Positions 2,188-31,596 are shown, numbered from the stretch's first letter. The stretch: DNA of 32,000 nucleotides from Nitrosomonas europaea (GCF_900167395.1 NZ_FUWK01000026.1:10204-42203), one strand, 5' to 3'. Numbers and translations are program-made. Notes: generated by a model not told the origin, from the sequence alone.

Positions 2188-2197
2188 GTCATCCATT

Positions 2198-2812: not shown

Positions 2813-2865
2813 TCGGACACCCGGTAAAAGATGAACAGTGCCGACCTCTCGGCCGATCCACCCCT

Positions 2866-9030: not shown

Positions 9031-9092
9031 CAGTGTTACCGGATCACACACTGCCATGCAGCTCGCGGCTAATAGTGCATGTATGGCTTGTA

Positions 9093-9124
9093 ATTCCATT
9101 CCCAAATCAAAAATGACACGAAGG
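9093..9124. repeat. 32-nt exact copy of the left arm of the intergenic element at 15950-16051
   Basis: ATTCCATTCCCAAATCAAAAATGACACGAAGG is identical to 15950-15981. It lies in the convergent gap between the FlhB-like gene and ycgR. Confidence 0.9.
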
Positions 9125-9172
9125 GCAGGAGTAATGATGACATCAGATTTTTTAATGTGATCTGTAACGATG

Positions 9173-9970
9173 TCAGAAGTGTGATTTCGTATCGAATTTT
9201 CTGGCCTGTTGTTCGAGCCAGATAATGTAACGTTGTATCAGCGTCCCTGATTTCTCAGACAAATTTACAAATTCACAACCGATGCGCGAGCAGGTGTTGC
9301 CATTGGAAAGAATGGCCATACTGATGCTCACGATCCGGACGGTAGTTTCAATCGTGTCGAATTCCGGTAATTCAATCCGGCAGTGCTCCAGCGTCATACC
9401 AGCTTCCAGCGGCGCATCGGTATCCGGCCGATCGATCAGCGCCATGCCACCGCGGCTGATATCCAGCAGATTGAGCGTAAGAAAAACTTCCTCATGTTGC
9501 CTCAATGGTGGAATGACGCAAGTTGCAGGGTTTGCCACGGGCGTTGCGATCCGATAAAAATTGCGCCGCTGCAGACGTTTCAGCGATGTCGGGAGATCTG
9601 CACTGAATGCATTGCGACCCTCAAACCGGATGTGCTGCAGGTTGTTGCAATCGAATTCGATCCTGATGCGGTTATGGCTGGTGACACAACGCAACATCCC
9701 GCTCTTGAGTGCCATTTGATTGAGTGTTTCATTGATCCCGTAATCCAGTACCAGTAACTTCTTTTGCAAATCGACAGCCAGAATGGATGAGAGAATCGCA
9801 GAGTGGCTGTTGCGGGCGAGATGCAGTGAAATCAGTGATTTTTCCTGCATGATTCCATTGAGGAAAAAACATACTTCAGTCAGAGAATGCACGATGTAGT
9901 CGGATTCATTCGTATCCCGCGATACGGATGAAGGCGCTGCCAATTCTGGATTTTTCCGAAGTATGGCCAT
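9173..9970 (-). CDS. ycgR: PilZ-domain flagellar brake protein YcgR
   Basis: 265 aa. It has an N-terminal YcgR/PilZN-like half and a C-terminal PilZ domain with c-di-GMP motifs RRNFYR (RRxxxR) and DISRGG (DxSxxG). Confidence 0.85.
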   Translation of the reverse strand: MAILRKNPELAAPSSVSRDTNESDYIVHSLTEVCFFLNGIMQEKSLISLHLARNSHSAILSSILAVDLQKKLLVLDYGINETLNQMALKSGMLRCVTSHNRIRIEFDCNNLQHIRFEGRNAFSADLPTSLKRLQRRNFYRIATPVANPATCVIPPLRQHEEVFLTLNLLDISRGGMALIDRPDTDAPLEAGMTLEHCRIELPEFDTIETTVRIVSISMAILSNGNTCSRIGCEFVNLSEKSGTLIQRYIIWLEQQARKFDTKSHF

Positions 9971-10001
9971 GATTTCCTCGCTATTTTTTATCGGCCCGAC
10001 G

Positions 10002-10331
10002 CTACACTTGCATGTTCATGATCTCCTGATACGCTGTTACCAGTCGGTTGCGTACCTGAATCATGGACTGAAAGGAAACATTCGCCTTCTGCAGAGAAAT
10101 CATGACATCGTGCAGTTCGACATCCTGATTGCCACCCACGAATTCCCGACTCAGCTGACTGGCAGTCTGCTGAACAGTATTGACCTGATCGACCGCAGAC
10201 TTGAGCAGTTGGCCGAAATCTGCCTGTGAAACCGTGGAAACGGTTGCAGAAGGTTTACTGCCACCCGCTGCCAGATCCGAAGTGGCCTTGAGCTGCGCCA
10301 GAATCTGATCCATGCCTGATGTAACGTTCAT
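10002..10331 (-). CDS. fliE: flagellar hook-basal body complex protein FliE
   Basis: 109 aa. The C-terminus [38 protein letters not shown] is the conserved FliE signature. Confidence 0.93.
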
Positions 10332-10489
10332 ATTTCTTTCTCCAGTATCTGGTTACTTCGGAAAACCTGCCGTACGGCTGAATCACTGTGGCGCATCTTC
10401 ACTCACCCCGCGCCTGTCATGTTGATATGCCTCGGAAAATTCGAACCGCCTGTAACGGTTTTTACCGAAATACTCATTTATAAAATCGA

Positions 10490-18735: not shown

Positions 18736-18793
18736 TGGCATGAGAATTGCTTGATACTTGCCATACAACAACAAATCTTCTTCGAGGACTACC

Positions 18794-19939
18794 ATGCCGA
18801 ATCTGCCCGCCCTTCCAGATATGGGTCTGCCTGTCGTAACCAGCGACCTCACAGCAACCCTTTTACCGGGCGTTGCCAGCCCCATTGTTCCCGGACAGCC
18901 AATCGAACAGGCATTTAGCAGCATCCTGATCAGTATGATGAAAAGCGATCAGGCCATTGAAGACGACACCGAAAATCCGGCACCGGTATCAATCGATGCA
19001 CTCATAGCCGGCATGATAGCTGCGCCGGCCAATCCACCTCAGCTCGTTCCATCTCAGCCCGCACCGGATGCACTGGACACACCGAATGCACCGGACGCAC
19101 CGGCGGAAGAACTGTTATCCATGCTGGCGACAAGCATGATGCCGAATACCGGCCAGCCAGTGACGGATGAGCCTGTTACCTTCCCCGCAGGCGGACTGGC
19201 ATCTGCAACGCCGCCAAATCTGCCATCGGACTCTGGCCGACACGCTGCCGATCCACTCCAGACAACCAGCCAGGCTCACGCTGCTCCTCTCCCTGCTGAA
19301 CTCCCGGCCGGAAATATCAGTACAAGTACCCCGTTTCCCGCTCCTGTGAACAGCTTTAATCAGGCAATCGATGCGGCAAATTTTGCCGATAGCGGCAAAT
19401 CCTTGCCGCCTTCGATGACATCTGTCCCGGTAACACCTGTAGCCGCACATACCAGCAGCACGCCACTGACTGATATTGCTGCTGATACCACGGCGAATGA
19501 TGCGCCGGCTATTGCCGCAGAATTTGGCCAGCCGGACTGGCCGGAAGAATTCGGCCGTAAAATCACCTGGCTGGCGACACAGCGGATGCAAGCGGCAGAA
19601 CTGAAACTGCATCCAGCCCATCTCGGCCCGATAGAAATTTCACTGCAGTTATCCGATGATCAGCGGCTTACGGCACAATTCATTTCACACCACCCCGCAG
19701 TCCGTGAAGCCATCGAAGCCAATCTGCCAAGATTGCGTGAGATCATGGCAGAAAACGGAATTACGCTGGCTGATACCTCAGTCAGTGCAGATACACCCGG
19801 GCAGCAGGCAGAAAACAGACAAGGCAGTCCCTTCCGCCGCCCGGCAGCCGGTGATCACTCCACCTACGATTCCACCAGTCCGCAGACACCAGCCTTACAG
19901 GCAACCAGACGTTCCAGCCTCATCGATACGTTCGCCTGA
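18794..19939 (+). CDS. fliK: flagellar hook-length control protein FliK
   Basis: Pro/Ala-rich N-terminal ruler region. C-terminal Flg_hook domain: AAELKLHPAHLGPIEISLQLSDDQRLTAQFISHHPAVREAIEANLPRLREIMAENGITL. I prefer ATG 18794 after GAGGA; the longest ORF starts at 18758. Confidence 0.85.
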   Translation: MPNLPALPDMGLPVVTSDLTATLLPGVASPIVPGQPIEQAFSSILISMMKSDQAIEDDTENPAPVSIDALIAGMIAAPANPPQLVPSQPAPDALDTPNAPDAPAEELLSMLATSMMPNTGQPVTDEPVTFPAGGLASATPPNLPSDSGRHAADPLQTTSQAHAAPLPAELPAGNISTSTPFPAPVNSFNQAIDAANFADSGKSLPPSMTSVPVTPVAAHTSSTPLTDIAADTTANDAPAIAAEFGQPDWPEEFGRKITWLATQRMQAAELKLHPAHLGPIEISLQLSDDQRLTAQFISHHPAVREAIEANLPRLREIMAENGITLADTSVSADTPGQQAENRQGSPFRRPAAGDHSTYDSTSPQTPALQATRRSSLIDTFA

Positions 19940-20073
19940 CAAGCTTACCGCTTCTGCTTCACACTCACTCCCTCATGCCCGGCATCGGCAAGGGCCATCT
20001 GCTTCATTGATAAGCCCGACAGGTAAAATCCAGGTCCCTTGCCAGAATCAAAAAGTCTTCTTCAGAAATTCCC

Positions 20074-20101
20074 TAAATGTAACAAGACGCTATGCCGTAA
20101 A
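20074..20101 (+). promoter_or_regulatory. candidate FliA (sigma-28) class-III-type promoter
   Basis: TAAATGTA-N12-GCCGTAAA compared with the consensus TAAAGTTT-N11-GCCGATAA. It lies about 120 nt upstream of the repeat-protein start codon. Confidence 0.45.
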
Positions 20102-20219
20102 GAGAAATAACGCCATAAAGGCTAGCGTAATGCCCGTAATACTGAGCATATTTTAGATCTAATGCCCTTATCCGCATTGATACCGAATAGGGACCCAACA
20201 AGTTTTGGAGAAAATAATT

Positions 20220-22241
20220 ATGTCGATTATCAGCAGCCTGACCCCAACCCAAATCTCTGCGTTGACAACGACGCAGATAAAAGATCTCACCACAGGAGAT
20301 ATGAAAGCGCTTTCTGACAAGCAGATCAACGCGATGACATCCACTCAGATCGCGGCCATTGAAACGCAAGATCTGGTCATCCTGAGCGGCAAGCAGATCG
20401 GGGCTTTTAATCCAAACCAATTTACCTACGGTTTGACCACCACACAAATCCAGGCGATTAATAAGGCGCAGGCCACCGGGCTTACCGCTGCCCAACTAAA
20501 AGACATGAATAGCGGCGATCTCTCCAGCCTGAGTGCAGACGCACTGGGCGCATTGTCCGCCAAGCAAATTCAGGGATTGAATTCCACTAACATCGAATCA
20601 CTTACAACAGCTCAGGCAGCCGTACTCAGCTACCAACAAATAGCAGCTATTAGCATAGATGCCGTCAAGGGATTTGAAACCGAGGATCTGGCTCAAATTA
20701 GCACCGCTGCCATCAAAGGTTTGACTGCTGCACAACTCGGTGCCCTGAACAGTGAGCAATTCAGCTCTCTGGATTCCAGCCAGGTGCAAGCCCTTTCCGC
20801 CAAACAAATCCAGGCGCTGGGCACGGATGTAATCAAGAATTTAACAACCAGCGACATGAAGGAGTTCTCTGCCACCCAGGTCGCTGCCCTGAGTAGCGCA
20901 CAACTGAAAGAACTCTCCAGCGGCCAACTTTCAGCCCGAAGTACAGACGCACTGGGTGCATTGTCTGCCAAGCAGATTCAGGGGCTGGATGCAACCAACT
21001 TATCCACCGACACTATCAGTGCACTGACCGCCAAACAAATCGCAGCACTGACCACAACTCAATTGAGTGGAATGAACAGCAGCCAGATCGGAGCTATCTC
21101 AACGAGTGGCATCGCCAGCCTGACCGCCGCACAAATCAAGGGATTGAGCAGTGCAAACGTGGAAGCGCTAACCTCAGATCAGGCTAAAATCCTGTCTGCC
21201 AAACAGCTTGCAGGCCTTGGCACAGATGCCGTCAAGGGATTTGAAACCGCAGATCTGGCTAAAATTGATGCCGCCGCCATCAAAGGTTTGACTGCCGCGC
21301 AACTCGGCGCACTGGGCAGTGCACAATTCAACTCTCTGGATTCCAGCCAGGTGCAAGCCCTTTCTGCCAAACAAATCCAGGCGCTGGGCACGGATGTAAT
21401 CAAGAATTTAACAACCAGCGACATGAAGGAGTTCTCTGCCACCCAGGTCGCAACGCTGACCACAGCTCAGTTAAACGCTATGGATAGCGACCAGATCGGC
21501 GCTATCTCAACGAGTGGCATCGCCAGCCTGACCGCCGCACAAATCAAGGGATTGAGCAGTGCAAACGTGGAAGCGCTAACCTCAGATCAGGCTAAAATCC
21601 TGTCTGCCAAACAGCTTGCAGGCCTTGGCACAGACGCCGTCAAGGGATTTGAAACCGGTGATCTGGCTCAAATTAGCACCGCCGCCATCAAGGGTTTGAC
21701 TGCCGCGCAACTCGGCGCGCTGGGCAGTGCACAATTCAACTCTCTGGATTCCAGCCAGGTGCAAGCCCTTTCTGCCAAACAAATCCAGTCACTGGGCACG
21801 GATGTAATCAAGAATTTAACAACCAGCGACATGAAGGAGTTCTCTGCCACCCAGGTCGCAACGCTGACCACAGCTCAGTTAAACGCTATGGATAGCGACC
21901 AGATCGGCGCTATCTCAACGAGTGGCATCGCCAGCCTGACCGCAGCACAAATCAAGGGATTGAGCAGCGCAAGCGTGGAGGCGCTAACCTCAGATCAGGC
22001 TGCAGCCCTGTCCGCCAAACAGCTTGCAGGCCTTAGCACAGATGCCGTCAAGGGATTTGAAACCGGTGACCTGGCTCAAATTAGCACCGCTGCCATCAAA
22101 GGTCTGACTATAGGTCAAATCAAAGAATTAAGTACTGATCAAGTAACAGCACTGACATCAGATCAGGTACAAGCCCTTTCTGCCAAACAGATTCAGGCCT
22201 TCACCACGGATCAGATTCAACACCTGAATTTTGGCAGCTAA
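20220..22241 (+). CDS. octad-repeat protein (673 aa), uncharacterised; no signal peptide
   Basis: ATG 20220 is preceded by GGAG; the track ORF begins at TTG 20205. Almost the whole protein parses as 8-aa units (LTPTQISA LTTTQIKD LTTGDMKA LSDKQINA ...). It has no Cys and no Trp. A strong terminator follows. Confidence 0.85.
   Translation: MSIISSLTPTQISALTTTQIKDLTTGDMKALSDKQINAMTSTQIAAIETQDLVILSGKQIGAFNPNQFTYGLTTTQIQAINKAQATGLTAAQLKDMNSGDLSSLSADALGALSAKQIQGLNSTNIESLTTAQAAVLSYQQIAAISIDAVKGFETEDLAQISTAAIKGLTAAQLGALNSEQFSSLDSSQVQALSAKQIQALGTDVIKNLTTSDMKEFSATQVAALSSAQLKELSSGQLSARSTDALGALSAKQIQGLDATNLSTDTISALTAKQIAALTTTQLSGMNSSQIGAISTSGIASLTAAQIKGLSSANVEALTSDQAKILSAKQLAGLGTDAVKGFETADLAKIDAAAIKGLTAAQLGALGSAQFNSLDSSQVQALSAKQIQALGTDVIKNLTTSDMKEFSATQVATLTTAQLNAMDSDQIGAISTSGIASLTAAQIKGLSSANVEALTSDQAKILSAKQLAGLGTDAVKGFETGDLAQISTAAIKGLTAAQLGALGSAQFNSLDSSQVQALSAKQIQSLGTDVIKNLTTSDMKEFSATQVATLTTAQLNAMDSDQIGAISTSGIASLTAAQIKGLSSASVEALTSDQAAALSAKQLAGLSTDAVKGFETGDLAQISTAAIKGLTIGQIKELSTDQVTALTSDQVQALSAKQIQAFTTDQIQHLNFGS
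20505..22110 (+). repeat. 408-bp (136-aa, 17-octad) tandem coding super-repeats
   Basis: Units start at 20505 (divergent), 21072, 21480 and 21888 (partial). The 21072 and 21480 units are near-identical at nucleotide level. The 408-nt spacing is also visible in the duplicated antisense ORFs of the track (21174 and 21582). Confidence 0.9.
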
Positions 22242-22280
22242 ACTGTCGATAGCTACTAATTAACAGCAGATATTTACTAA

Positions 22281-22318
22281 CCACGATATTGGAGCTGATC
22301 CGATATCGTGGTTTTTTT
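22281..22318 (+). terminator. rho-independent terminator of the repeat-protein gene
   Basis: CCACGATAT...ATATCGTGG stem followed by TTTTTTT. Confidence 0.85.
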
Positions 22319-22458
22319 ATTGGCAGTACAAGCAGCAATAGAACAGGCGTCCGGAACATCCCGGAAATATATCCATTTCTGTCACCAGATTCAGCGGAGT
22401 CATGTAGCTTTTAGGATGTCAGAAACTAATGTACTATTTCTTACATAGAGAGATATCC

Positions 22459-23055
22459 ATGAACACACTGCCCGAGACCATCCTGCAACAAGCACGATCT
22501 CTCCAAGAGGGAGGTATTCTGTCGCCCAGGGAATTCCTGCACCTGGGAAGCCGGTCGGCGGTAGATCAGGCATTTTCCAGACTGGCCAAGGCCGGTAGAC
22601 TACTGCGCGTGGCGCGTGGCACCTACGCCATCCCGGTTTCCAGCCGGTTCGGCTCACGCGCTCCCGCTCCCGAGAAAGTCATCAGGGCGCTGGCCGAACA
22701 AAGCGGTGAAATCGTCGTACCACATGGCGCCAGCGCGGCCAATGTCCTGGGCCTGACGCAGCAGGTACCCATCCGCGAGGTCTATCTGACCTCCGGACGC
22801 ACCCGAAAGCTGAAGCTCGGCCGCTCGGAAGTGCTCATCAAGCACGCCCCGCGCTGGATGCTGGCGCTGGGTACACGACCAGCCGGCGCGGCCGTGCGCG
22901 CACTGGCCTGGATTGGACCCACACACGCTGGCAAGTCGCTGGCATCGCTGCGCCGTATTCTTCCTCTCCCCGAATGGCAAGCGTTGATCTCAGCGCGAGC
23001 AACGCTGCCCGGCTGGATGGCACAAGCCATCGGCGAGGAAGCCGCGCGTGGCTGA
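22459..23055 (+). CDS. abiEi: AbiEi-family type IV toxin-antitoxin system antitoxin (transcriptional regulator)
   Basis: N-terminal wHTH-like region with GILSPREFLHLGSRSAVDQAFSRLAKAGRLLRVARGTYA, typical of AbiEi_4/DUF6088 antitoxins. It overlaps the downstream AbiEii gene by 8 nt. I prefer the start at ATG 22459; the longest ORF starts at 22429. Confidence 0.8.
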   Translation: MNTLPETILQQARSLQEGGILSPREFLHLGSRSAVDQAFSRLAKAGRLLRVARGTYAIPVSSRFGSRAPAPEKVIRALAEQSGEIVVPHGASAANVLGLTQQVPIREVYLTSGRTRKLKLGRSEVLIKHAPRWMLALGTRPAGAAVRALAWIGPTHAGKSLASLRRILPLPEWQALISARATLPGWMAQAIGEEAARG

Positions 23056-24070
23056 ATATTTCTTTGACCTGAACAAAAGAGATCAACGCGAAGCGCTGGA
23101 ATACGGGCGGGCCGAAACCGGCCGCCCCATTCACCTGCTTGAAAAGGATATATGGGTAGTGTGGGCGCTGCGCGCCCTGTTCGTATCACCGTTGTCGGCC
23201 GACTTGACATTCAAGGGTGGCACATCACTGTCGAAGGTTTACAAGCTCATCGACCGCTTCTCCGAAGATATCGACCTGACCTGCGACATCCGCAAGCTGA
23301 TCCCGGACCTGGTCGGCAAAGGCGACGAACTGCCGGCCAGCCGCAGCCAGGCTGGCAAGTGGACGCAGACCGTGCGGCATCGGCTGCCAGACTGGATCAT
23401 GCAGAACGTGCAGCCAGTGGTTCAAGCGGCCCTGGTCCGCGAGCAACTGAACGCCCGATTGGAACTCGGCGGCTCAGACAACGACAAGCTGTTCCTGCAC
23501 TACCCCGCTCTGGCGCAAGGCACGGGATACGTAGCGCCTGTCGTCACACTGGAGTTCGGCGGCCGCGCCACTGGCGAGCCGCACCAGGTATTCCCGATTA
23601 CTTGCGACATCGCCGCACATCTGGCTGACGTGTCGTTCCCCATCGCGTCACCGCTGGTCATGAGCGTCGCGCGTACCTTTTGGGAGAAGGCCACTGCTGC
23701 ACATGTGTTCTGCGCACAAGGCCGCATTCGCAGCGAACGCTACGCACGGCATTGGCACGACCTGGCCGCGATCGCACGCAGCCCGCATTTCGCAGCCGTA
23801 ATTGCGGATCGTACGGTGGCAATCGCTGTTGCCCGCCACAAGTCATACTTCTTCATCGAGAAAGATGCAGATGGCCAAGCCATCGACTACATAGCCGCGA
23901 CCACAGGGCATCTGAAAATCGTCCCCGAGGGCGAGGCCAAAGCCGCACTCGCCAGGGACTATGCGGCCATGCTGGCCGATGAAGTGATGGTGGGCAATGC
24001 CTTATCCTTCGATGCATTGTTAAAGGCATGTGCCGACCTCGAAGCCAGGGTGAACAGGGCTGCCTTGTAG
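23048..24070 (+). CDS. abiEii: AbiEii/AbiGii-family nucleotidyltransferase toxin
   Basis: FKGGTSLSKVYKLIDRFSEDIDL is the hallmark NTase motif of AbiEii. The GTG start overlaps the antitoxin stop (GTGGCTGA). The segment is GC-rich. Confidence 0.88.
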   Translation: MAEYFFDLNKRDQREALEYGRAETGRPIHLLEKDIWVVWALRALFVSPLSADLTFKGGTSLSKVYKLIDRFSEDIDLTCDIRKLIPDLVGKGDELPASRSQAGKWTQTVRHRLPDWIMQNVQPVVQAALVREQLNARLELGGSDNDKLFLHYPALAQGTGYVAPVVTLEFGGRATGEPHQVFPITCDIAAHLADVSFPIASPLVMSVARTFWEKATAAHVFCAQGRIRSERYARHWHDLAAIARSPHFAAVIADRTVAIAVARHKSYFFIEKDADGQAIDYIAATTGHLKIVPEGEAKAALARDYAAMLADEVMVGNALSFDALLKACADLEARVNRAAL

Positions 24071-24199: not shown

Positions 24200-24311
24200 A
24201 GAAGTGCTCACAAATAACCTGAAATTATCGGGTTAATCAGCACTTTTGCGGGATCACCCAGCTGATAGATTGCAGAGCATAACTGTTACTGCTTTTTATC
24301 AGGAGCCAAAC

Positions 24312-27300
24312 GTGCCAACCCATTCCCTATCTGATTACACCAGCTGGATCGAACGCACCTGGCAGGGCCAGGTTTCCTTTACCGAGCTGGTCACTTACGC
24401 TGAAACGTTAAATTCACATCCCGCGCTGTGCGCTGCACTCTACCGCACCTGGCTGCAGCGTAATACAGGCGTTTTCAACAGCGTTGCCTGGTTCAATCTC
24501 GGCGTTATTCTTTTTGCTGAAAATAACCTGATTGATTCGATTGAAGCTTTCCAGAAGGCACTGGCGCTTAGCCCGGCTTTCCCCCAGGCCCGTATCAATC
24601 TCGGACTGGCGCTTGAACGCCAGGGCAATGCAGAAGCCGCCATTGAACAATGGCAGGCAGTTGTTGAGAACGCCATCACGCCGGAAGCTGATCAAAATAC
24701 CGGGCCAAACCAGGCAGATCAGATAAAAAACCTGACCATGGCGCTCAACAACATCGGGCGCCTGCAGGAAACCCGGCGGCAATATCAGGCAGCCACTCAG
24801 GCGCTGGAAAAAAGCCTGCAGCTTGACCCTGATCAGCCGGATGCCATCCACCACCTGATTTTTCAGCGCCAGAAACAATGCCAGTGGCCGGTTTACGCAC
24901 CAGTGGGCAAGGTCACAGAAGCGGTATTGCATGAACACACCTCGGCGCTTGCCATGCTGAATATCTCGGATGCCCCGGAAGCCCAGCTTACCGCTGCCCT
25001 GAACTACAGCCGCCGCAAGATTCCGGCTGATCTGCCTCGGCTATCCCCTGCCAATGGTTACCGCCACGACAAGATTCGAGTTGCCTATTGCTCCAGCGAT
25101 TTTTGTACTCACCCGGTTGCCATGCTCACGGTTGAACTGTTTGAGCACCACGACAAAAACCGCTTTGAAACCTATGCTTTCTGCTGGTCGCCGGACGATG
25201 GTTCAACCTTGCGCCAGCGTATTCTTTCTGCCGTGGATCATTACATTCCCGTGCACGGCAAAAGTGATGACGAAGTTGCCCAACTCATCCGCCAGCACGA
25301 GATTGATATTCTCATCGATCTGCAAGGCCAGACTAGCGGCGCTAAAACCCGCATGCTGGCCATGCGCCCGGCACCTATGCAAATCACCTATCTGGGCCTG
25401 CCGGCCACTACGGGTTTGCCGGGAATTGATTATGTCATCGCCGACCGCTACCTGATTCCCGAAGAATATGCCCGCTTCTACAGCGAAAAACCGCTCTATA
25501 TGCCGGATGTCTATCAGGTTAGCGACCGCAAGCGCGAACACAGCCCCGCCCCCACCCGCAAGGATTGCGGCCTGCCCGCGCGCAAGTTTGTGTTCTGTTC
25601 CTTCAACAACAACCACAAATACACACTGGAAGTGTTTACCACCTGGATGAACATTCTGCGCCGCGTTCCCAACAGCGTGCTGTGGCTGCTGGCGGACAAC
25701 CCCTGGGCCAGGGAAAACCTGCAAAAACAGGCCAAAGCACAGGGCATTGACCCGAAACGACTGGTATTTGCCGAACGCACCATGCCAGCCGATTATCTGG
25801 CGCGCTATTTGGTTGCTGACCTGTTCCTCGACACTTTCCCCTTCAATGCCGGCACCACCGCTAATGATGCGTTATGGATGGGCCTGCCGGTGCTGACCAT
25901 GAGTGGACGTTCCTTCGCTTCCCGCATGGCAGGTGCACTGCTGACTGCCGCCGATCTACCTGAACTCATCACTCATGATCTGCAAACTTATGAAGATAAA
26001 GCGGTAGCCCTGGCTGCAGATGCCAAAGCGCGCAAAACCATGCGCCAGAAACTGGCGCTGGCCAAAGAAAGCGGCCCGCTGTTCGATTCGCTGCGCTTTA
26101 CCCGTAATCTGGAACAGCAATACATCGCGCTCGTCAGTGAACTGCAAAACCCGTCTCAGCACATCAATATCAGCGCACAACCTGAACCGACAAAATTGGG
26201 AGAGCCGGCACAGCCCAACCCAATCATCGCTACTGTTCAGGAGGCAGAAGCACTGCAAGCCAGGGGAGATACACAAGGCGCTATCCAGCTCTACCGCCAG
26301 TGGCTTGAGCACGCCCATTCAGGAGATGAATGGATAGCCCAGTTCAATCTGGGTGTACTGCTGAGAGACGGGGGAGATATCACAGGTGCACAACAAGCCT
26401 TTCAGGCTGTGTTGAAGCAAAAACCGGATTTCGTACAGGCAAGAGCGGCGTTAGGGAAATTACCGGCGCCGGTGACAACCGAGAGCCAGAAACACGGGGC
26501 AATCATTGGCCCACTACAAACCAACTCTCCAATTAGTACAAAGAGCAAGGAGCAGATAACGCAGATTTTTTCAGAAACGCCTAAGATCAAGTTGCTGGTC
26601 GAGGGGTGGAGAGGAATAAACCATTCGTTTGCCTTGGTAAATCAATACCATCTGTACGAGTGGATGCGATCCAGTCAATTACATATTTATCATCGCGATA
26701 TGCCCTTGCTCTTCTCGCATTGGGAAACGAACAAGAACAGGGGTAATACAGGGCTTCCGGGAACATACAGCCAGCGACTAGCACAAGTTCAGCACTGGAG
26801 TGGTCAGACCTATGATGCATGTTTCCGTATCTATTCACCGGTCACATTGGCGCCGGATGACAAACATCCAGTTTCTACATTCCTCGTAACAGAGCTCGGA
26901 TTGGATGAAACGCAAATTGCTCATTTCAGACCCAATCTCAAGGCCTATTTCAATATGGGAGGAAACATTGTCACTCCATCTCATTGGTCAAAAGAAAGAA
27001 TTATTGAAGCTGGCATACCAGCTGAGCATATCCATCTTATTTCCCACGGTGTAGCCTCAAATATCTTCCATCCAATGCATTCAGATGAACGTGCCATTCA
27101 TCGCCAACGCTTGGGATTTGATCGTGAGGCAGTTATTTTCCTCAATGTAGCTGCTCCGATATGGAACAAGGGACTGGATCTCTTGATTCAGGCTTTTGTC
27201 CAGTGTTTCCATCAGAATCCTCATACCAGGCTGCTCATCAAAGATCAGCAGGCTGTTTATGGTATCAGCACCAAGGATACAGTTTTACGCGAGATAACAC

Positions 27301-27815
27301 TGCTGGGTGAAAGCAAAAATGAATCCTTGCTGAATGCCATCCGAGTTATTCCGGATCTGAATCTGCTCCAACTCAGAGAGTTATATTGTATCGCCGACTA
27401 CTATGTTTCGCCGTACCGTGCCGAAGGTTTCAATCTGCCTGTTATTGAAGCTCTTGTGTGCGGCACGCCAGTCATTGTTACAGAAGGCGGCGCCACACAA
27501 GATTTTTGCAGCGAAAAAAATGCCTTGTTCATTGAGGCTGTGCCTTACAGAAATGTCAAAATCAACGACAGGCACGTTAATGCTTATCAGGCCCCCATTC
27601 TGGACTCACTAATTACTCATCTAAATGTATGCGCACAGGATAAGCCTTTCTCCGAAAGCCAACGTCTGCAGAATGCGGCATCTATTGCCAAGAATTTTAC
27701 CTGGGCAAAAGCGGCTGACACGATTTCCCGATTGTTCACGCAATCAAATGATTGCAATACCAGCACATCTCAAATAACTGGAGCCTTACATGAAGAACCC
27801 CAATACTGTAATTAG
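24312..27815 (+). CDS. fusion glycosyltransferase: TPR - GT41 (O-GlcNAc-transferase/SPINDLY-like) - TPR - GT4 (Glycos_transf_1)
   Basis: GTG 24312 follows AGGAG; the track ORF starts at TTG 24246. TPRs are in the N-terminal ~200 aa. The GT41-like core carries KIRVAYCSSDF, ILIDLQGQT, ITYLGLPATTG, FCSFNNNHK, DTFPFNAGTTANDALWMGLPVLT. A second TPR block lies around aa 690-750. The C-terminal GT4 domain has the E-x7-E region (AEGFNLPVIEALVCGTPVI). Confidence 0.88.
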   Translation: MPTHSLSDYTSWIERTWQGQVSFTELVTYAETLNSHPALCAALYRTWLQRNTGVFNSVAWFNLGVILFAENNLIDSIEAFQKALALSPAFPQARINLGLALERQGNAEAAIEQWQAVVENAITPEADQNTGPNQADQIKNLTMALNNIGRLQETRRQYQAATQALEKSLQLDPDQPDAIHHLIFQRQKQCQWPVYAPVGKVTEAVLHEHTSALAMLNISDAPEAQLTAALNYSRRKIPADLPRLSPANGYRHDKIRVAYCSSDFCTHPVAMLTVELFEHHDKNRFETYAFCWSPDDGSTLRQRILSAVDHYIPVHGKSDDEVAQLIRQHEIDILIDLQGQTSGAKTRMLAMRPAPMQITYLGLPATTGLPGIDYVIADRYLIPEEYARFYSEKPLYMPDVYQVSDRKREHSPAPTRKDCGLPARKFVFCSFNNNHKYTLEVFTTWMNILRRVPNSVLWLLADNPWARENLQKQAKAQGIDPKRLVFAERTMPADYLARYLVADLFLDTFPFNAGTTANDALWMGLPVLTMSGRSFASRMAGALLTAADLPELITHDLQTYEDKAVALAADAKARKTMRQKLALAKESGPLFDSLRFTRNLEQQYIALVSELQNPSQHINISAQPEPTKLGEPAQPNPIIATVQEAEALQARGDTQGAIQLYRQWLEHAHSGDEWIAQFNLGVLLRDGGDITGAQQAFQAVLKQKPDFVQARAALGKLPAPVTTESQKHGAIIGPLQTNSPISTKSKEQITQIFSETPKIKLLVEGWRGINHSFALVNQYHLYEWMRSSQLHIYHRDMPLLFSHWETNKNRGNTGLPGTYSQRLAQVQHWSGQTYDACFRIYSPVTLAPDDKHPVSTFLVTELGLDETQIAHFRPNLKAYFNMGGNIVTPSHWSKERIIEAGIPAEHIHLISHGVASNIFHPMHSDERAIHRQRLGFDREAVIFLNVAAPIWNKGLDLLIQAFVQCFHQNPHTRLLIKDQQAVYGISTKDTVLREITLLGESKNESLLNAIRVIPDLNLLQLRELYCIADYYVSPYRAEGFNLPVIEALVCGTPVIVTEGGATQDFCSEKNALFIEAVPYRNVKINDRHVNAYQAPILDSLITHLNVCAQDKPFSESQRLQNAASIAKNFTWAKAADTISRLFTQSNDCNTSTSQITGALHEEPQYCN

Positions 27816-28539
27816 CTCTGACTACGGTCCAATCATTATTAACCTGAACGACAATGCAATTGGACGGCAAATCAGCCAATATGGATACTGGGCAACAGAT
27901 GACATCAATATCATCAATACCTTAGTTAATGTTCAGTTAGATAAATTTGGCCAAATCATGTTCTACGATGTAGGTGCGAATATCGGCACGCATTCACTAG
28001 CAATTGCCAAAACTCATCCCGATACAGTTGCTATTCGGGCATTCGAAGCACAGCGGCAAGTATTCAATATGCTGTGCGGCACTATGGCAATCAACGGGCT
28101 TTCGAATGTCCATTGCCACCATAATGCCATTAGTGAAAAAATCGGAGATTTTATTGACATCCCCATACCAGACTATAACAGCGCCAACAACTTTGGAAGC
28201 TTAGAGCTAATCCCACCAAAAAACTCCGACAACCAAGGCATCATCCATAGCGGAAAAATGGAAAGTGTCAAAACATTATCAATTGATTCATTCAATGAAA
28301 AAGTTGATTTTATCAAAATGGATATTGAAGGGATGGAAGACAAGGCGCTCTTGGGAGCAATCAACACAATCGAACATCATCGGCCAATTCTCTTCCTCGA
28401 AATCCTGAAAACAGATGTTAATTTTGTTATGACCTTTCTGAGGGAAAGAGGTTATCTCGGATTTCAGAAATCATTTGATCTGATCGCCATACCGATTGAA
28501 TATCAACTACAAGTCAATGGCACAAATCGGGTTTTCTGA
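27790..28539 (+). CDS. FkbM-family SAM-dependent methyltransferase
   Basis: FYDVGANIGTHSLAIAK (SAM-binding G-loop) and DFIKMDIEGME are typical of FkbM. It overlaps the end of the glycosyltransferase gene by 26 nt. The segment is very AT-rich. Confidence 0.87.
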   Translation: MKNPNTVISSDYGPIIINLNDNAIGRQISQYGYWATDDINIINTLVNVQLDKFGQIMFYDVGANIGTHSLAIAKTHPDTVAIRAFEAQRQVFNMLCGTMAINGLSNVHCHHNAISEKIGDFIDIPIPDYNSANNFGSLELIPPKNSDNQGIIHSGKMESVKTLSIDSFNEKVDFIKMDIEGMEDKALLGAINTIEHHRPILFLEILKTDVNFVMTFLRERGYLGFQKSFDLIAIPIEYQLQVNGTNRVF

Positions 28540-28839: not shown

Positions 28840-29853
28840 TTGTTTGACGTTAATTACGAAAAACAAGCTCAGGACTATTACAGCAAGGCCCCCATCATAA
28901 TTTTAGGTAGTGGTGCCTCGGCTACGCATGGAATGCCTGGCATGCGGGGGCTTGCGCAACATCTGACCGACAAAACCGATGTTTCAGGACTGTCTGATGC
29001 TGAGATGGAGCCTTGGAGGAGCTTTTGCCGGACACTCACAGATGGTGTGGATTTGGAATCGGCACTCCGCCAGGTAGCCGTATCTGAAGAGCTGACTTGC
29101 AGGATCATAAATTCCACTTGGTCACTTATCAACTCTGAAGATGCTGCAATCTTCAAGAATAGCTTGCAAAACAGCTCGATGTTCCCGCTGAGCCGTCTGC
29201 TTGAACACATGTTCAAAACAAGCCTAAAAAAAATAAATATTGTCACTACAAATTATGATCGCTTGGCAGAGTATGCATGCGACCAAAGCAGAATTCATCA
29301 CTACACTGGATTTACTCACGGATTTTTCCGCCAACTGGCCACGCCCGATGAATTAACCTGCTCACGCAGAGTGAATATTTGGAAAGTACATGGATCTCTC
29401 GACTGGTTTCAGTCGCCACTAGAAGACACCATCGCAATTTCAGGCGCACAAGAAATTCCTGAAAATTACAGCCCACAGATTGTGACACCTGGCACGCAAA
29501 AGTACCAAAAGACGCACCTTGAGCCATTTCGCTCCATCATAAATAACGCCGACATAGCTATTAATGAGGCGGGTTCATACTTGTGCATCGGGTATGGATT
29601 CAATGATGAGCATGTTCAGCCAAAACTTATGGCTAAATGCCAGCGACAGGGGGCGCCAGTCACCATTATCACATACGCACTTTCCGATTCGACTAAAAAA
29701 CTTATTCTTGGCGGCAAAGCACAAAATTATTTAGCGATAGAGCGTGGGGCGACAGATGGCCAGTCTGTTGTCTACTCTTCTCTGAGCAGTTCTTCGTTCA
29801 CAGTAGAGAAGAACATCTGGAGCCTTGAAGGCTACTTATCACTCATCATGTAG
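28840..29853 (+). CDS. SIR2-family (SIR2_2) NADase-type defence protein, partner of HerA
   Basis: IIILGSGAS (Rossmann G-loop), VTTNYDRL and WKVHGSLDWF (catalytic Asn/Asp and His contexts of SIR2_2). The apparent start is TTG, preceded by AAAGGGAGAAGG. The stop lies 9 nt before herA. Confidence 0.82.
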   Translation: MFDVNYEKQAQDYYSKAPIIILGSGASATHGMPGMRGLAQHLTDKTDVSGLSDAEMEPWRSFCRTLTDGVDLESALRQVAVSEELTCRIINSTWSLINSEDAAIFKNSLQNSSMFPLSRLLEHMFKTSLKKINIVTTNYDRLAEYACDQSRIHHYTGFTHGFFRQLATPDELTCSRRVNIWKVHGSLDWFQSPLEDTIAISGAQEIPENYSPQIVTPGTQKYQKTHLEPFRSIINNADIAINEAGSYLCIGYGFNDEHVQPKLMAKCQRQGAPVTIITYALSDSTKKLILGGKAQNYLAIERGATDGQSVVYSSLSSSSFTVEKNIWSLEGYLSLIM

Positions 29854-29862
29854 AGAGGGCAT

Positions 29863-31596
29863 ATGCCAATATTCAACTTTAGGGATGAAGAAGCGCTCGG
29901 GAAGGTTGCTTCCGTTGATACCACGAATGTAATTGTGGATGTGGAGAATGTCGCTCATCTAAAAAGGTTACAGGTTAATCATCTCGCCGTGCTTCAGAGC
30001 AGCAGGCCTGGGCAGCACCTCATTGGCCTTATTACGCAGGTGACTAGAAAGCGAGGCATCGAAAATATTTCCGATGATGGAATCGTCGACCAAAATTCAG
30101 AATTGAATCTGTGTCGCATTGCCTTAATTGGAACCATGCTAGATCGCGATGGCTCCAAGGAGAATGTTTTTCGTCGAACAATCGAAAGTGTTCCCGAAAT
30201 AGATGCCAACTGCTTTTCGCTCGAAGGCGAGAACCTCACTGGATTTATGCGCACGCTCTCCAGCGTTTCAGCGGAAGGAAATGCCTTGACGCTAGGGAAG
30301 TACACGTTGGATGAGAATGCAGTAGCCTACCTTAATGGTAATAAATTTTTCCAGCGCCATGCCTTTATCGGAGGAAGTACAGGTTCTGGAAAGTCTTGGA
30401 CAACTGCCAAAATTATTGAGCAAATGTCAGGGCTTTCTACAGCGAATGCCATTGTCTTTGACCTTCATGGCGAATACTCTCCATTGACAGGGCCAGGCAT
30501 TCAGCACTTCAAGGTTGCAGGGCCGGCAGATGTTGAAGCCAAACGCACCATCTCTGATGATGTGCTTTATCTTCCTTATTGGCTGCTTTCTTATGAGGCG
30601 CTAGTTTCCATGTTTGTGGATCGTAGCGATCAGAATGCCCCTAACCAAGCTATGATAATAGCTCGCGAGATCAATCAAGCGAAAAGAAAGTACCTTGAGG
30701 ACAATGGGCAGCAGGCGTTACTAAAGCACTTTACTGTTGATAGCCCAGTTCCATTCGATCTCGATTTCCTTATGGAGCGATTGAATTCGATTAACGTCGA
30801 GATGGTTCCCGGCGCTAAAGCTGGAACCGAAAAGCAAGGCGATTTCTTCGGAAAGCTCGCGCGCATGATTTCCAGGCTTGAGAACAAAATTTCCGATAGG
30901 CGTCTCGGATTTATGTTCAACGGTGGCGGAGACATTCTTGACTTCGCTTGGCTTGAGAAGTTTGCCAATGCTGCTCTCGGAAGCACGGGCGAGAACGGCA
31001 AGGCAGGTATCAAGATCATCAACTTCTCTGAGGTTCCCTCGGACGTTCTTCCCCTGATAGTCTCCCTTGTTGCACGAGTCACATTTTCGGTGCAGCAGTG
31101 GACTCCATCAGAGCTTCGCCATCCCATTGCGCTTCTCTGTGATGAAGCTCACCTCTATATGCCCCAGCGCAACATGGCAGATTCCGCAGACGATATTTCA
31201 TTGGATATATTCGAGCGCATCGCGAAAGAAGGACGAAAATATGGCGTCAGCTTGGTTGTAATCAGTCAGCGTCCATCCGAAGTAAACAAAACGCTGCTTA
31301 GCCAGTGCAGCAATTTTGTATCTATGCGTCTGACTAATGCCGAAGATCAAGGCGTTATCAAACGCCTTCTCCCCGACAGCCTTGGCGGCTTCAGTGACAT
31401 CCTTCCCACACTCGATACTGGTGAGGCTTTGGTTGTCGGCGATGCCAGCTTATTGCCAAGTCGCATCAGAATCGACGAGCCACAGAACAAGCCGAATAGC
31501 GGAACTGTGAACTTCTGGGATGAATGGCAGAAGCCAGTCAAAGACAATCGGCTATTGATTGCCGTCGATAACTGGCGCAAGCAAAACATCCAATAG
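29863..31596 (+). CDS. herA: HerA-like (DUF87/FtsK-HerA superfamily) ATPase of a SIR2-HerA defence pair
   Basis: N-terminal HAS-barrel-like region (GKVASVDTTNVIVDV). Walker A GGSTGSGKS. Walker B LLCDEAHLYMP. The C-terminal signature is GVSLVVISQRPSEV...FVSMRLTN...GEALVVGDA. Confidence 0.9.
   Translation: MPIFNFRDEEALGKVASVDTTNVIVDVENVAHLKRLQVNHLAVLQSSRPGQHLIGLITQVTRKRGIENISDDGIVDQNSELNLCRIALIGTMLDRDGSKENVFRRTIESVPEIDANCFSLEGENLTGFMRTLSSVSAEGNALTLGKYTLDENAVAYLNGNKFFQRHAFIGGSTGSGKSWTTAKIIEQMSGLSTANAIVFDLHGEYSPLTGPGIQHFKVAGPADVEAKRTISDDVLYLPYWLLSYEALVSMFVDRSDQNAPNQAMIIAREINQAKRKYLEDNGQQALLKHFTVDSPVPFDLDFLMERLNSINVEMVPGAKAGTEKQGDFFGKLARMISRLENKISDRRLGFMFNGGGDILDFAWLEKFANAALGSTGENGKAGIKIINFSEVPSDVLPLIVSLVARVTFSVQQWTPSELRHPIALLCDEAHLYMPQRNMADSADDISLDIFERIAKEGRKYGVSLVVISQRPSEVNKTLLSQCSNFVSMRLTNAEDQGVIKRLLPDSLGGFSDILPTLDTGEALVVGDASLLPSRIRIDEPQNKPNSGTVNFWDEWQKPVKDNRLLIAVDNWRKQNIQ

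Follow-up and report, generated by a model that had tools for sequence, protein, structure and literature searches.

In Gram-positive bacteria the serine-rich repeat proteins are encoded adjacent to their GtfA/B enzymes and receive multiple decorations before export. A similar arrangement is known in Haemophilus, where the large repetitive protein HMW1 is encoded next to the GT41 enzyme that decorates it, HMW1C (PMC3012730). In Caulobacter, FlmG sets the precedent for TPR-plus-GT-B enzymes, which bind flagellin via the TPR domain and glycosylate it in the cytoplasm (PMC7591256). The flagellin glycosylation islands of enterobacteria commonly contain GT41 and FkbM genes (PMC4875605). When the Xanthomonas OGT homologue XcOGT was described its native substrate was left unidentified (PMC2556091).

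The present study concerns a gene for a 673-aa repeat protein in a 32-kb stretch of Nitrosomonas DNA, which is referred to here as the window (Table 1). The locus resembles the systems in which a TPR O-glycosyltransferase acts on flagellin (FlmG, the GT41 islands and Listeria GmaR), as a cytoplasmic TPR-plus-GT-B enzyme is encoded beside a signal-less, Cys-free protein with a putative sigma-28-class promoter, and sugar-biosynthesis and FkbM-type methyltransferase genes lie alongside. However, the neighbour here is predicted to be a pure repeat rod of highly variable length and has no Flagellin_N or Flagellin_C domain. With HMW1 and the serine-rich adhesins the locus shares a repetitive Ser/Thr- or Asn-x-Ser/Thr-rich protein adjoining a glycosyltransferase gene, but those adhesins have export partners of their own (TpsB; SecA2/Y2) and signal sequences, none of which was seen here, and HMW1C is an N-glycosyltransferase without TPRs whereas the enzyme here carries them. 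The enzyme also matches XcOGT, with the difference that a specific candidate substrate is encoded next door.

Table 1. Features of the window, with positions counted from its first nucleotide.
Feature	Position	Strand	Basis
fliK (hook-length control protein), last of the upstream fliFGHIJK run	18758..19939	+	Pfam Flg_hook E 1.5e-23
Sigma-28 (FliA)-type promoter candidate, TAAATGTA-N12-GCCGTAAA	20074..20101	+	Motif match
5' leader with two small hairpins	20102..20219	+	Conservation, RNAalifold
CDS of the 673-aa ALTTAQ-repeat (octad) protein, ATG at 20220, stop at 22241, GGAG Shine-Dalgarno at 20207-20210	20220..22241	+	ORF call, Pfam, octad parse, AlphaFold2
N-terminal cap region, ending at FNPNQFTYG	20220..20432	+	Alignment of 18 orthologues of the GT41-linked subfamily
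Super-repeat unit 1 (17 octads)	20505..20912	+	75% DNA identity to units 2 and 3
Extra 159-bp (53-aa) segment between units 1 and 2, containing LDATN	20913..21071	+	Octad parse, unit alignment
Super-repeat unit 2	21072..21479	+	391/408 identical to unit 3; Tandem Repeats Finder
Super-repeat unit 3	21480..21887	+	Tandem Repeats Finder, unit alignment
Partial unit 4 running into the conserved C-terminal cap (...AFTTDQIQHLNFGS)	21888..22241	+	Unit alignment
Intrinsic terminator, 15-bp stem then T run	22279..22320	+	Kept in L014-L016 and L093 with compensatory stem changes
AbiEi/AbiEii toxin-antitoxin pair, between the repeat gene and the GT41 gene	22429..24070	+	Pfam DUF6088/AbiEi_4, AbiEii
TPR - GT41 (OGT-like) - TPR - GT4 glycosyltransferase, 1189 aa	24246..27815	+	Pfam Glyco_transf_41 E 1.9e-79, TPRs, Glycos_transf_1
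FkbM-family methyltransferase	27790..28539	+	Pfam Methyltransf_21

The octad array, its family and its predicted fold

The initial annotation had described a strict array of 8-residue units, and this architecture is borne out both by autocorrelation and by a parse of the sequence. Autocorrelation of L/I/M/V/F residues reaches 0.83, 0.82 and 0.81 at lags 8, 16 and 24, respectively, and is negative or about 0.27 at the remaining lags, and dynamic programming divides the protein into 84 units, all of them 8 residues long except two. These two, FNPNQFTYG (aa 63-71) and LDATN (aa 256-260), are exactly the phase breaks that had been pointed out. Position 1 of the octad is L/I/F/M, position 2 is Ser or Thr (58 of 81), position 3 is T/A/S, position 5 is Gln (50 of 81) and position 6 is I/L/V, and the octads carry the residue pattern of a helical screw, with S/T/D/N/G at position 2 and L/I/V/M/F at positions 1 and 6. 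A count agrees with the composition reported earlier (no Cys, no Trp, one Arg and one His). By hydropathy alone no signal peptide or transmembrane segment is apparent, as had been claimed (maximum Kyte-Doolittle mean over 19 residues, 1.03), nor is a Sec-type N-terminus, and residues 1-19 contain zero charged residues. The repeat is neither a heptad coiled coil nor a pentapeptide repeat, again in line with the annotation, as the period is strictly 8 and the structural model is all-helical without strands. A leucine-rich repeat was ruled out by the same period and strand-free model, the matches to such repeats in the PDB and Pfam being weak composition matches. Flagellin identity was rejected because Pfam gave no Flagellin_N or Flagellin_C match at E <= 10, and minus-strand ORFs of 66-94 aa within the array are echoes of the repeat and not genes.

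The repeat had not been recognised as a named family, and on this point the annotation was wrong or out of date. The protein belongs to Pfam PF20080, ALTTAQ_rpt (E 3.5e-117), scoring 382.2 bits against a gathering cut-off of 26.4 bits in 28 stretches over its whole length; five orthologues score 434-1544 bits. The PF20080 model has 38 positions, and its consensus A-L-T-T-A-Q corresponds to octad positions 8, 1, 2, 3, 4 and 5. Its function is undescribed in Pfam. A literature search for 'ALTTAQ' gave no paper, 'PF20080' matched only unrelated catalogue numbers, octad and octapeptide searches returned prion papers, and a search on Nitrosomonas fliK gave nothing relevant. Most of the PF20080 members that were found are multi-domain proteins in which calpain-like, matrixin, SelO, cadherin/Ig or FrpC-like self-processing domains follow the repeats; their 8-residue autocorrelation is 0.1-0.5 as compared to 0.65-0.87 in the repeats-only proteins linked to GT41. 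What is new is that the all-repeat protein is a member of an orthologous subfamily of 342-4563 aa with distinct conserved termini and a coupled GT41 gene. Cys is nearly absent, at 0-1 per orthologue among those of up to 1800 aa. The N-terminal cap has the consensus MSIISS..QI.ALTT.QI..LTT.D.KA....Q..A.T..QI.AIET.DLV.LS..QI.AF and is also present in Thauera, Magnetovirga and Pseudomonas genomes; its order-specific motifs DFKAM and AIETRDLVVLS are retained in orthologues of 342-1800 aa, and the C-terminal ending ...TTDQIQxLx[F/L/I/V] is common to the orthologues.

The 673-aa protein was not on record by exact-sequence look-up, and a genome-collection scan with it gave 82 pattern matches, none of them confirmed. 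A word-indexed search with the full protein returned relatives only at <=36% identity, mostly multi-domain, and one with a profile of the conserved N-terminus returned only fragments of <=140 aa. An exhaustive HMMER search gave 1621 representatives, with the subfamily N-terminus in none of the top 130, for which HMMER bias correction or fragmentary assemblies may be the cause.

The fold had been left open by the initial annotation, and AlphaFold2 now gives a confident array with one short helix per octad. The full-length model (pLDDT 89.3) has about 78 helices of about 5 residues for the 84 octads by DSSP, and the model of a 144-aa fragment (pLDDT 96.3) has 18 helices for 18 octads. The models thus predict an 8-mer alpha-helical screw. 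A 2025 preprint described this fold, on the basis of random and designed repeats, as 'structural dark matter'; it presents the designed screw HeliScrew4 with its crystal structure 9ZEM, cites 7QLR as the sole natural example in the PDB and says nothing of ALTTAQ proteins (bioRxiv 10.64898/2025.12.04.691947). HeliScrew4 is the sole solved look-alike of the octad protein, which matches the 9ZEM sequence at E 2.5e-10 as a single sequence and at 1.3e-35 as a profile. In 9ZEM, and by prediction in the octad protein, a unit of 8 residues (LTPEQIAA in 9ZEM) is one short helix, with a Ser/Thr/Asp/Asn N-cap and apolar residues in the core of a tight superhelix. The two differ at helix position N1, which is Pro in HeliScrew4 and Thr in the natural protein. 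As HeliScrew4 is a designed protein of 120 residues, the similarity is by convergence and not by descent. Neither 9ZEM nor 7QLR was among the results of the two Foldseek searches of the PDB (library to 8 April 2026). The fragment gave nothing at E <= 1e-3, the best released PDB match being mesothelin (TM 0.45), and the full-length model gave only generic alpha-solenoids (TM <=0.26).

In the predicted fold, each octad L-[T/S]-T-x-Q-[I/V/L]-x-A would form one 5-residue helix, N-capped by the Ser or Thr of position 2, with positions 1 and 6 buried. With one helix per octad, about 80 octads would stack as a long thin alpha-helical-screw rod having short conserved caps at both ends. If the prediction is right, the 8-mer alpha-helical screw occurs in natural proteins of hundreds to thousands of residues, which would offer natural targets to structural biologists and a length-tunable rod to protein engineers.

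The late flagellar setting and the probable GT41 partner

A link to the flagellar system had been suggested earlier and is now much stronger, with a putative sigma-28-like promoter and late flagellar synteny in several lineages. The pattern TAAA-N14-17-GCCGWWAA, which was written after seeing the site, has one match in the 32-kb window where 0.01 is expected by chance; the gap is 16 nt (consensus 15) and the -10 element agrees at 6 of 8 positions. The motif is identical or nearly so in PRO4 (L006), in loci L014-L016 and in N. europaea L093. Motifs of this type scoring at least 10 of 12 are found upstream of the repeat gene in 11 of 23 loci; the flagellin genes of these loci have one in 9 of 15 cases, and background 400-nt windows in 5%. 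As judged by motif, the repeat gene and flagellin genes are thus preceded by sigma-28-type promoters at about the same frequency. No sigma-70 site was found in a promoter scan of 19800-22600, and a sigma-54 site sought by eye in the spacer was rejected as its GG-GC spacing is wrong.

Most of the spacer that separates fliK from the repeat gene is shared by the window and PRO4 (82% mean column identity, in an alignment that includes the gene start), whereas FliK itself is just 39% identical between the two. RNAalifold gives the leader 21 pairs, 2 of them with compensatory changes, from just 5 sequences. Downstream, an Rfam search of 19800-22500 gave one sub-threshold '23S-methyl' match, which is the terminator hairpin. 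With a sigma-28 (FliA)-type promoter and a strong terminator, the repeat gene would form its own transcription unit. This promoter and terminator pattern and the synteny match a late and probably abundant product of the flagellar regulon.

The repeat gene directly follows fliFGHIJK in the window and in PRO4. Among 22 loci the commonest neighbour families are Flagellin_N/C, FliD, FliS, FliT, methyltransferases and sugar-nucleotide enzymes, and in Thauera the order is fliC - repeat gene - GT41 - ... - fliC - flaG - fliD - fliS - fliT. Seven other fliK loci have neither the repeat gene nor the GT41 gene in the flanks covered, which extend to at most 10 kb and, on the downstream side of fliK in L001, to just 0.7 kb.

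The enzyme encoded downstream is, from its sequence, a true OGT homologue, matching human OGT at E 3e-89 and Xanthomonas XcOGT at E 6e-84 (residues 80-613). The pairing of the two genes was missed by the initial annotation; in the window only the inserted AbiE pair intervenes. The window, L013 and L093 carry that pair, whereas L014-L016 lack it and have the repeat and GT41 genes 142-165 nt apart; it is an insertion and lies outside the repeat/GT41 module.

An ALTTAQ ORF was found beside the GT41 gene in 57 of 80 metagenome loci, or 57 of the 65 with usable flanks. As the loci were baited with the GT41 region alone, the latter fraction counts enzyme loci that have a repeat gene and not repeat genes that have a GT41 neighbour, and many of the 80 are related and thus not independent. 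The 8 evaluable GT41 loci without a repeat gene are sugar- or LPS-like clusters with no flagellin. At least four gene arrangements keep the repeat and GT41 genes close, and both were likewise found together in N. europaea, Thauera butanivorans, Pseudomonas sp. LPB0260, gammaproteobacterium HdN1 and Magnetovirga frankeli.

The proposed acceptor, its possible export and competing readings

The pairing with an OGT-like enzyme in late flagellar and flagellin-glycosylation loci makes the repeat protein the likely natural target of the enzyme. It is probably the O-glycosylation acceptor of the adjacent enzyme. The TPR domain of the enzyme would dock on the repeat protein and the GT41 domain would O-glycosylate the regularly spaced, exposed Thr or Ser at octad position 3 (perhaps also position 2), after which the neighbouring strain-variable glycosyl- and methyl-transferases could elaborate the sugar. 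Thr occupies position 3 in 62% of GT41-linked octads as compared to 26% in other ALTTAQ proteins, an enrichment that is partly confounded because the comparison set includes non-repeat domains. Ser/Thr richness alone is not indicative of glycosylation, since the Ser/Thr of position 2 is explained as a helix N-cap. N-glycosylation in the style of HMW1C was set aside, as the protein has just 6 N-x-S/T sequons and O-transferases are the nearest match to the enzyme.

The export route is the least certain step. With no Sec signal and no type I system nearby, the flagellar type III apparatus is the most plausible route, and the modified rod could then act outside the cell. The protein does have the features of a type III substrate (no Sec signal or transmembrane segment, few or no Cys), which are necessary but not specific, and composition alone cannot show flagellar type III export because the whole repeat has that composition. 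The N-terminal ~65 aa are conserved yet are predicted by AlphaFold2 to be helical from residue 3, so that there is no obviously disordered N-terminal export signal, which counts against export by this route. No dedicated export chaperone gene was conserved beside the repeat gene in the neighbour survey.

Taken jointly, a screw-rod of the late flagellar regulon with a dedicated GT41 partner, probably an O-glycosylation acceptor and plausibly exported by the flagellar type III system, is a reading which we hold at roughly even confidence. A more far-reaching version is unlikely as a whole. It states that the all-octad GT41-linked proteins are what proteobacterial OGT homologues natively and heavily O-glycosylate, are exported as late sigma-28 flagellar type III substrates, form a hitherto unrecognised extracellular glycoprotein rod or fibre on the flagellum or cell surface and are widespread natural helical screws.

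It could also be that flagellin is the real substrate of the GT41 enzyme and that the repeat protein is a cytoplasmic accessory, for example a scaffold or adaptor holding the enzyme or flagellin close to the export gate, or a factor that regulates glycosylation or late gene expression. TPR-GT enzymes of flagellar loci are known flagellin glycosyltransferases (FlmG and the glycosylation islands), many loci have flagellin genes within a few kb of the pair, and a protein without a recognisable secretion signal would suit a role inside the cell. However, a length range of 342-4563 aa together with rapid allele turnover would be unusual in an adaptor or regulator. The pair also persists without a nearby flagellin gene: it is intact in Pseudomonas sp. 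LPB0260 with no flagellar genes within 10 kb on each side, and in HdN1 and Magnetovirga the fetched flanks contain no flagellin gene. In Nitrosomonas, moreover, the glycosylation genes adjoin the repeat gene, with no flagellin gene beside them within the 32-kb window. We consider this reading, with flagellin as the true substrate, unlikely.

Very large repeat proteins that have few Cys, no signal sequence and a conserved C-terminus typically leave the cell by type I secretion. The repeat protein might be a surface fibre or adhesin secreted by a type I (ABC/MFP/TolC) system encoded elsewhere, in the manner of other ALTTAQ proteins, with the flagellar neighbourhood reflecting co-location in a variable surface-antigen island. 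A calpain-type ALTTAQ protein of Buttiauxella adjoins a complete ABC-C39/MFP/OEP system, and a profile built from homologues of the 673-aa protein picks up, in addition, the RTX-type FrpC self-processing module, located after the repeats in some homologues. On the other hand, neither RTX (PF00353 HemolysinCabind) nor any other non-repeat domain was found in the 673-aa protein or the five orthologues scanned, the 32-kb window has no ABC/MFP/OEP transporter genes, and OEP accounts for just 2 of 143 neighbour ORFs. The recurrence of putative sigma-28-type promoters and flagellar synteny across lineages also argues against type I export, which we regard as improbable.

If the reading of the repeat protein as a late flagellar acceptor of GT41 is true, beta- and gammaproteobacteria (among them Nitrosomonas, Thauera, Rhodocyclaceae, Acidovorax, Pseudomonas, HdN1 and Magnetovirga) would have a further conserved, unannotated component in their late flagellar and flagellin-glycosylation loci. 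Bacterial O-GlcNAc-transferase homologues would also gain a concrete candidate for their native substrate, a question left open when XcOGT was solved (PMC2556091).

Super-repeats and turnover of the array

The nesting of the octads in 408-bp super-repeats, as originally described, is recovered by Tandem Repeats Finder (period 408, 2.5 copies, 95% matches, 21083-22109). The near-identity noted for the middle two units also holds at the DNA level, at 95.8%. The unit at 21888 matches over its first ~215 nt, beyond which it diverges as it enters the C-terminal end.

The tandem array is not an assembly artefact. The same gene was found at the same place in a single-contig, chromosome-sized (2.89 Mb) record of N. 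europaea, CP157069.1, where it has a different repeat arrangement and encodes 726 aa from the MSIISS start. Non-functional runaway duplication or misassembly, which the near-identical 408-bp units and the contigs ending inside repeats (L006, L013, L017 and many others) might have suggested, is effectively refuted by the 673-aa frame open without a stop codon, by caps, candidate promoter, leader and terminator conserved across genera, by the presence of the gene in five chromosome-sized genome records (726-4563 aa) and by strong Pfam and AlphaFold support.

The repeat protein changes much faster than its surroundings. Between the window and N. europaea CP157069 it is 72% identical with indels, as compared to 92-100% for its neighbours (92% for FliK). 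At the same locus L014 carries a different N-terminal allele, and the repeat protein there is 41% identical as against 92% for FliK and 90% for GT41. Recombination between the near-identical 408-bp units could change the number and sequence of the repeats quickly. Hypervariable repeat number together with allele swapping makes this a likely surface-variation locus, and a predictable breakpoint in short-read assemblies.

One detail that the initial annotation did not spell out is the 53-aa segment between units 1 and 2 (20913-21071). In N. europaea CP157069 this segment is duplicated together with its super-repeat unit.

Architecture and predicted fold of the repeat protein

The gene directly after fliK encodes a 673-aa protein in which hydrophobic residues recur with a period of strictly 8 (autocorrelation 0.83 at lag 8 and 0.76 at lag 40). 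A dynamic-programming parse divided it into 84 units with the consensus L-[S/T]-[T/A/S]-x-Q-[I/L/V]-x-[A/G]. Two of these are not eight residues long, FNPNQFTYG (aa 63-71) and LDATN (aa 256-260), and they are exactly the two phase breaks noticed among the strict octads in the initial annotation. The composition (no Cys, no Trp, one Arg and one His) was confirmed by counting, and hydropathy likewise revealed neither a TM segment nor a Sec-type N-terminus. The nested 408-bp super-repeats were recovered by Tandem Repeats Finder (95% matches), and by direct comparison the middle two units, 2 and 3, described as almost identical, share 95.8% DNA identity. Unit 1 is 75% identical to both, and unit 4 matches for ~215 nt before its sequence diverges towards the C-terminal end.

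Features of the window that bear on the repeat gene and its neighbours
Feature	Position	Strand	Remarks
fleS/fleR-like two-component genes		minus	first in gene order
CHASE2-PAS-GGDEF-EAL (961 aa) and FecR-LysM (608 aa) proteins	2866-7577	minus	just upstream of flagellar genes
Second FliK-like gene	7599-8684
Small FlhB C-terminal-domain-like gene	8650-9030		Bac_export_2
ycgR	9173-9970	minus
Sigma-28-type motif	20074-20101		TAAATGTA-N12-GCCGTAAA; pattern match upstream of repeat gene
Leader of repeat gene	20102-20219
GGAG	20207-20210		9 nt upstream of ATG
Repeat-gene ORF	20220-22241	+	673 aa
Super-repeat units 1, 2, 3, 4	start at 20505, 21072, 21480, 21888
Extra segment between units 1 and 2	20913-21071		159 bp
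408-bp period	21083-22109
Rfam '23S-methyl' match	22222-22318		rejected
Terminator of repeat gene	22279-22313		15-bp stem
AbiEi/AbiEii pair	22429-24070		exactly between repeat gene and GT41; type IV toxin-antitoxin / abortive-infection
GT41 enzyme gene	24246-27815	+	1189 aa, TPR-GT41-TPR-GT4
SIR2-like protein and HerA-type helicase	28840-31596		just after glycosylation genes

Two earlier statements are outdated. The repeat had been taken for an unnamed family, but it is already catalogued in Pfam as ALTTAQ_rpt (PF20080), which the protein matches in 28 stretches at 382 bits against a cut-off of 26.4 bits; NCBIfam gave no match to the protein, and a literature search for the name ALTTAQ found no paper containing it. 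The fold had been called open, but it is one with a designed precedent. The full-length AlphaFold2 model (53 homologues, mean pLDDT 89.3) has ~78 helices of ~5 residues, one per octad, with lower confidence at both phase breaks and also at aa 470-480, a region without a phase break. A 144-aa fragment was modelled with 18 helices for 18 octads at a pLDDT of 96.3. Among solved proteins, real similarity in sequence was limited to 9ZEM (E 2.5e-10 for a single-sequence query, 1.3e-35 with a profile), the crystal structure of HeliScrew4, which a December 2025 preprint presents as a designed 8-mer 'alpha-helical screw'. Its design logic of N-cap Ser/Thr/Asp/Asn and an apolar core is common to the window protein, and the preprint, which gives 7QLR as the one natural example in the PDB, calls the alpha-helical screw structural dark matter. 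Because of these models and the similarity to 9ZEM, the fold is confidently predicted with a designed, crystal-verified analogue, and the protein is predicted to be a helical-screw rod. Foldseek against released PDB entries retrieved nothing convincing for the full-length model (TM 0.26 or less) and no match at E <= 1e-3 for the fragment, the best being mesothelin (TM 0.45).

Pairing with an OGT-like glycosyltransferase

The partner enzyme, a TPR-GT41-TPR-GT4 fusion, is a true homologue of O-GlcNAc transferase (human OGT, E 3e-89; the Xanthomonas homologue XcOGT, E 6e-84). When 80 metagenome loci were baited with the GT41 region only (their GT41 proteins being 52-94% identical to that of the window), an ALTTAQ ORF was present in 57, in one of them 9 kb away. 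Fifteen of the 23 loci without it were set aside as non-evaluable, their upstream flank being shorter than 1.3 kb. Of the 65 evaluable loci, 57 therefore have the pair and 8 lack it, these 8 being clusters of the sugar/LPS type with no flagellin. The repeat gene most commonly lies upstream of GT41 on the same strand with a gap of 7-334 nt, and convergent, divergent (at ~3.7 kb) and downstream same-strand arrangements also occur. One repeat-only homologue (P0005) is directly upstream of a TPR-GT41 gene 57% identical to the window enzyme, in a locus that also has fliK-like, flhB-like, ycgR and cheV genes. At the seven other fliK loci neither gene was found in the fetched flanks of up to 10 kb, the contig of the closest of these (L001) ending 0.7 kb past fliK.

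The pair was also found in five chromosome-sized records: N. europaea CP157069 (repeat protein of 726 aa, context as in the window), Thauera butanivorans (871 aa, fliC - repeat - GT41 - ... - FkbM - fliC - flaG - fliD - fliS - fliT), Pseudomonas sp. LPB0260 (1248 aa, no flagellar genes within 10 kb), gammaproteobacterium HdN1 (4563 aa, sugar-nucleotide genes next) and Magnetovirga frankeli (2818 aa, GT2 and FkbM genes next).

By Pfam, the GT41-linked proteins consist of repeats only, with an 8-residue autocorrelation of 0.65-0.87, compared with 0.1-0.5 in other ALTTAQ members. They contain no Cys or one, even at 1800 aa. Their N-terminus is order-specific (MSIISGM..QI.ALTT.QI..LTT.DFKAM.T.Q..ALT..Q..AIETRDLVVLS) and their common ending is ...TTDQIQxLx[F/L/I/V]; a second N-terminal type, MA.IGGIP...W..KEIK, stands at the equivalent locus in PRO4 and two others (L009, L014). 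Thr occupies octad position 3, the exposed helix N1, in 62% of 2198 GT41-linked octads against 26% in other ALTTAQ proteins, a comparison set diluted by non-repeat domains, and its enrichment there exceeds that at other consensus positions. We found no annotation or paper on this all-repeat, conserved-cap subfamily or its size range of 342-4563 aa, nor on its tight coupling to an OGT-like enzyme or its position in late flagellar and glycosylation loci.

Flagellar context, transcription and proposed export

The window gene order runs from the fleS/fleR-like genes through fliF-G-H-I-J-K to the repeat gene, AbiEi/AbiEii, the GT41 enzyme, an FkbM methyltransferase, SIR2 and HerA, and FliI, FliJ and FliK are 98%, 100% and 92% identical to those of CP157069.1. 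Among 143 ORFs flanking the pair in 22 loci, the leading Pfam families were Flagellin_C (8), Flagellin_N and Flagellin_IN (7 each), Methyltransf_23 (6), and FliD_N and FliD_C (5 each); FliS, FliT, sugar-nucleotide enzymes and GT2 are among those with 3 each. The FliK-like/FlhB-like/ycgR trio recurs beside the pair in L009 and after fliT in Thauera. The CHASE2-PAS-GGDEF-EAL and FecR-LysM proteins, with ycgR, may provide c-di-GMP input to motility.

The 280-nt spacer between fliK and the repeat gene is mostly conserved in 'Betaproteobacteria bacterium PRO4' (mean column identity 82%, start of the repeat gene included), whereas FliK is only 39% identical. The sigma-28-type pattern matches once in the whole window (chance expectation 0.01), and together with the terminator, which is maintained with compensatory changes in related loci, this indicates that the repeat gene is its own transcription unit. 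In 11 of 23 loci a motif of this type (>=10/12) precedes the repeat gene by 88-203 nt, some being textbook sites (TAAAGTTT-N11-TCCGATAA in L040), compared with 9 of 15 flagellin genes of these loci and 5% of background 400-nt windows; the enrichment is suggestive, not proof, as the pattern was drawn up after the window site was seen and several loci are mutually related. Expression of the gene could depend on FliA. The leader is unusually conserved. It has the potential to fold into two small hairpins with a single compensatory change apiece (n=5 sequences), one of them just 5' of the Shine-Dalgarno sequence with GGA motifs close by, and it may be a post-transcriptional control element. The '23S-methyl' match (29.8 bits, gathering score 50) falls on the terminator hairpin, a stem-loop that almost certainly resembles the motif by chance.

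In FlmG, a TPR domain binds flagellin and a GT domain modifies it in the cytoplasm (PMC7591256), and by analogy the TPR domain of the GT41 enzyme could dock on the repeat protein, whose exposed Thr/Ser would then be O-glycosylated. The repeat protein would thereafter be exported. Its regulon and locus favour a putative flagellar type III route, as do the missing Sec signal and the lack of a type I system nearby. That it is instead an accessory to flagellin glycosylation is unlikely. Other ALTTAQ proteins do use type I secretion, and a type I-secreted fibre co-located by chance with this locus is quite improbable. An artefactual ORF can practically be dismissed. For XcOGT the question of the native substrate was left unanswered (PMC2556091), and for bacterial OGT homologues the repeat protein is a direct candidate for that role.

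Strain variation and the wider family

Relative to CP157069, identity in the repeat protein is 72%, with indels, whereas its neighbours are 92-100% identical. Against L014 it is 41% identical, compared with 92% for FliK and 90% for GT41. In L017 identity falls from 100% (FkbM, SIR2) and 99.7% (HerA) to 87% in GT41 and 38% in the repeat-protein C-terminus, which suggests a recombination boundary inside the module. Genes downstream of GT41 are also strain-variable. In place of the GT4 fusion, CP157069 (L093 10001-15092) has a 1009-aa TPR-GT41 followed by a methyltransferase-GT2 protein, a DegT aminotransferase and a hexapeptide acetyltransferase, so that, judged from gene content, a glycan-building cassette is swapped between close strains. 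This variability resembles that of surface-antigen and flagellin-glycosylation islands (PMC4875605).

The AbiE pair is also present in CP157069 (99-100% identical) and L013. The close relatives L014-L016 carry fliI-J-K, the repeat gene and GT41 without it, the last two genes lying 142-165 nt apart, and the AbiE genes are therefore an insertion into the repeat-GT41 pair. The combination of a SIR2-like protein with a HerA-type helicase is known from anti-phage defence. Contigs assembled from short reads very often stop within the repeat gene (L006, L013, L017, L022-L024 and many other loci); that of PRO4 ends 600 nt into it, with the GT41 gene on a separate 1.6-kb contig (P0270). The gene is a systematic assembly breakpoint and will be under-represented in protein databases.

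HMMER, run exhaustively against 1.84 billion representatives, found 1621 proteins with E <= 1e-3, of which 130 reach E <= 1e-30; most are giant multi-domain proteins. In most relatives from an indexed search the repeats precede calpain-like, matrixin, SelO, cadherin/Ig or FrpC-type self-processing domains. In Buttiauxella gaviniae, whose genome has three calpain-domain ALTTAQ paralogues, one is divergent from a complete type I secretion system (ABC transporter with C39-like domain, membrane fusion protein and outer-membrane factor; region L098 2439-11483). ALTTAQ arrays therefore look like a general module of secreted proteins. At positions 461-615 the homologue profile A2 also matches the FrpC self-processing module of Neisseria (6SJW/6SJX, E 1.5e-20), which probably corresponds to PF26745, and some ALTTAQ proteins thus have a Ca-dependent 'clip-and-link' module following their repeats. 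An 810-aa ALTTAQ protein that is repeat-only but less regular shares its contig with ubiquitin and a Ulp1-like (Peptidase_C48) protease (L010/L011, region 510-10433), a eukaryote-like gene set that suggests an intracellular symbiont, pathogen or giant virus.
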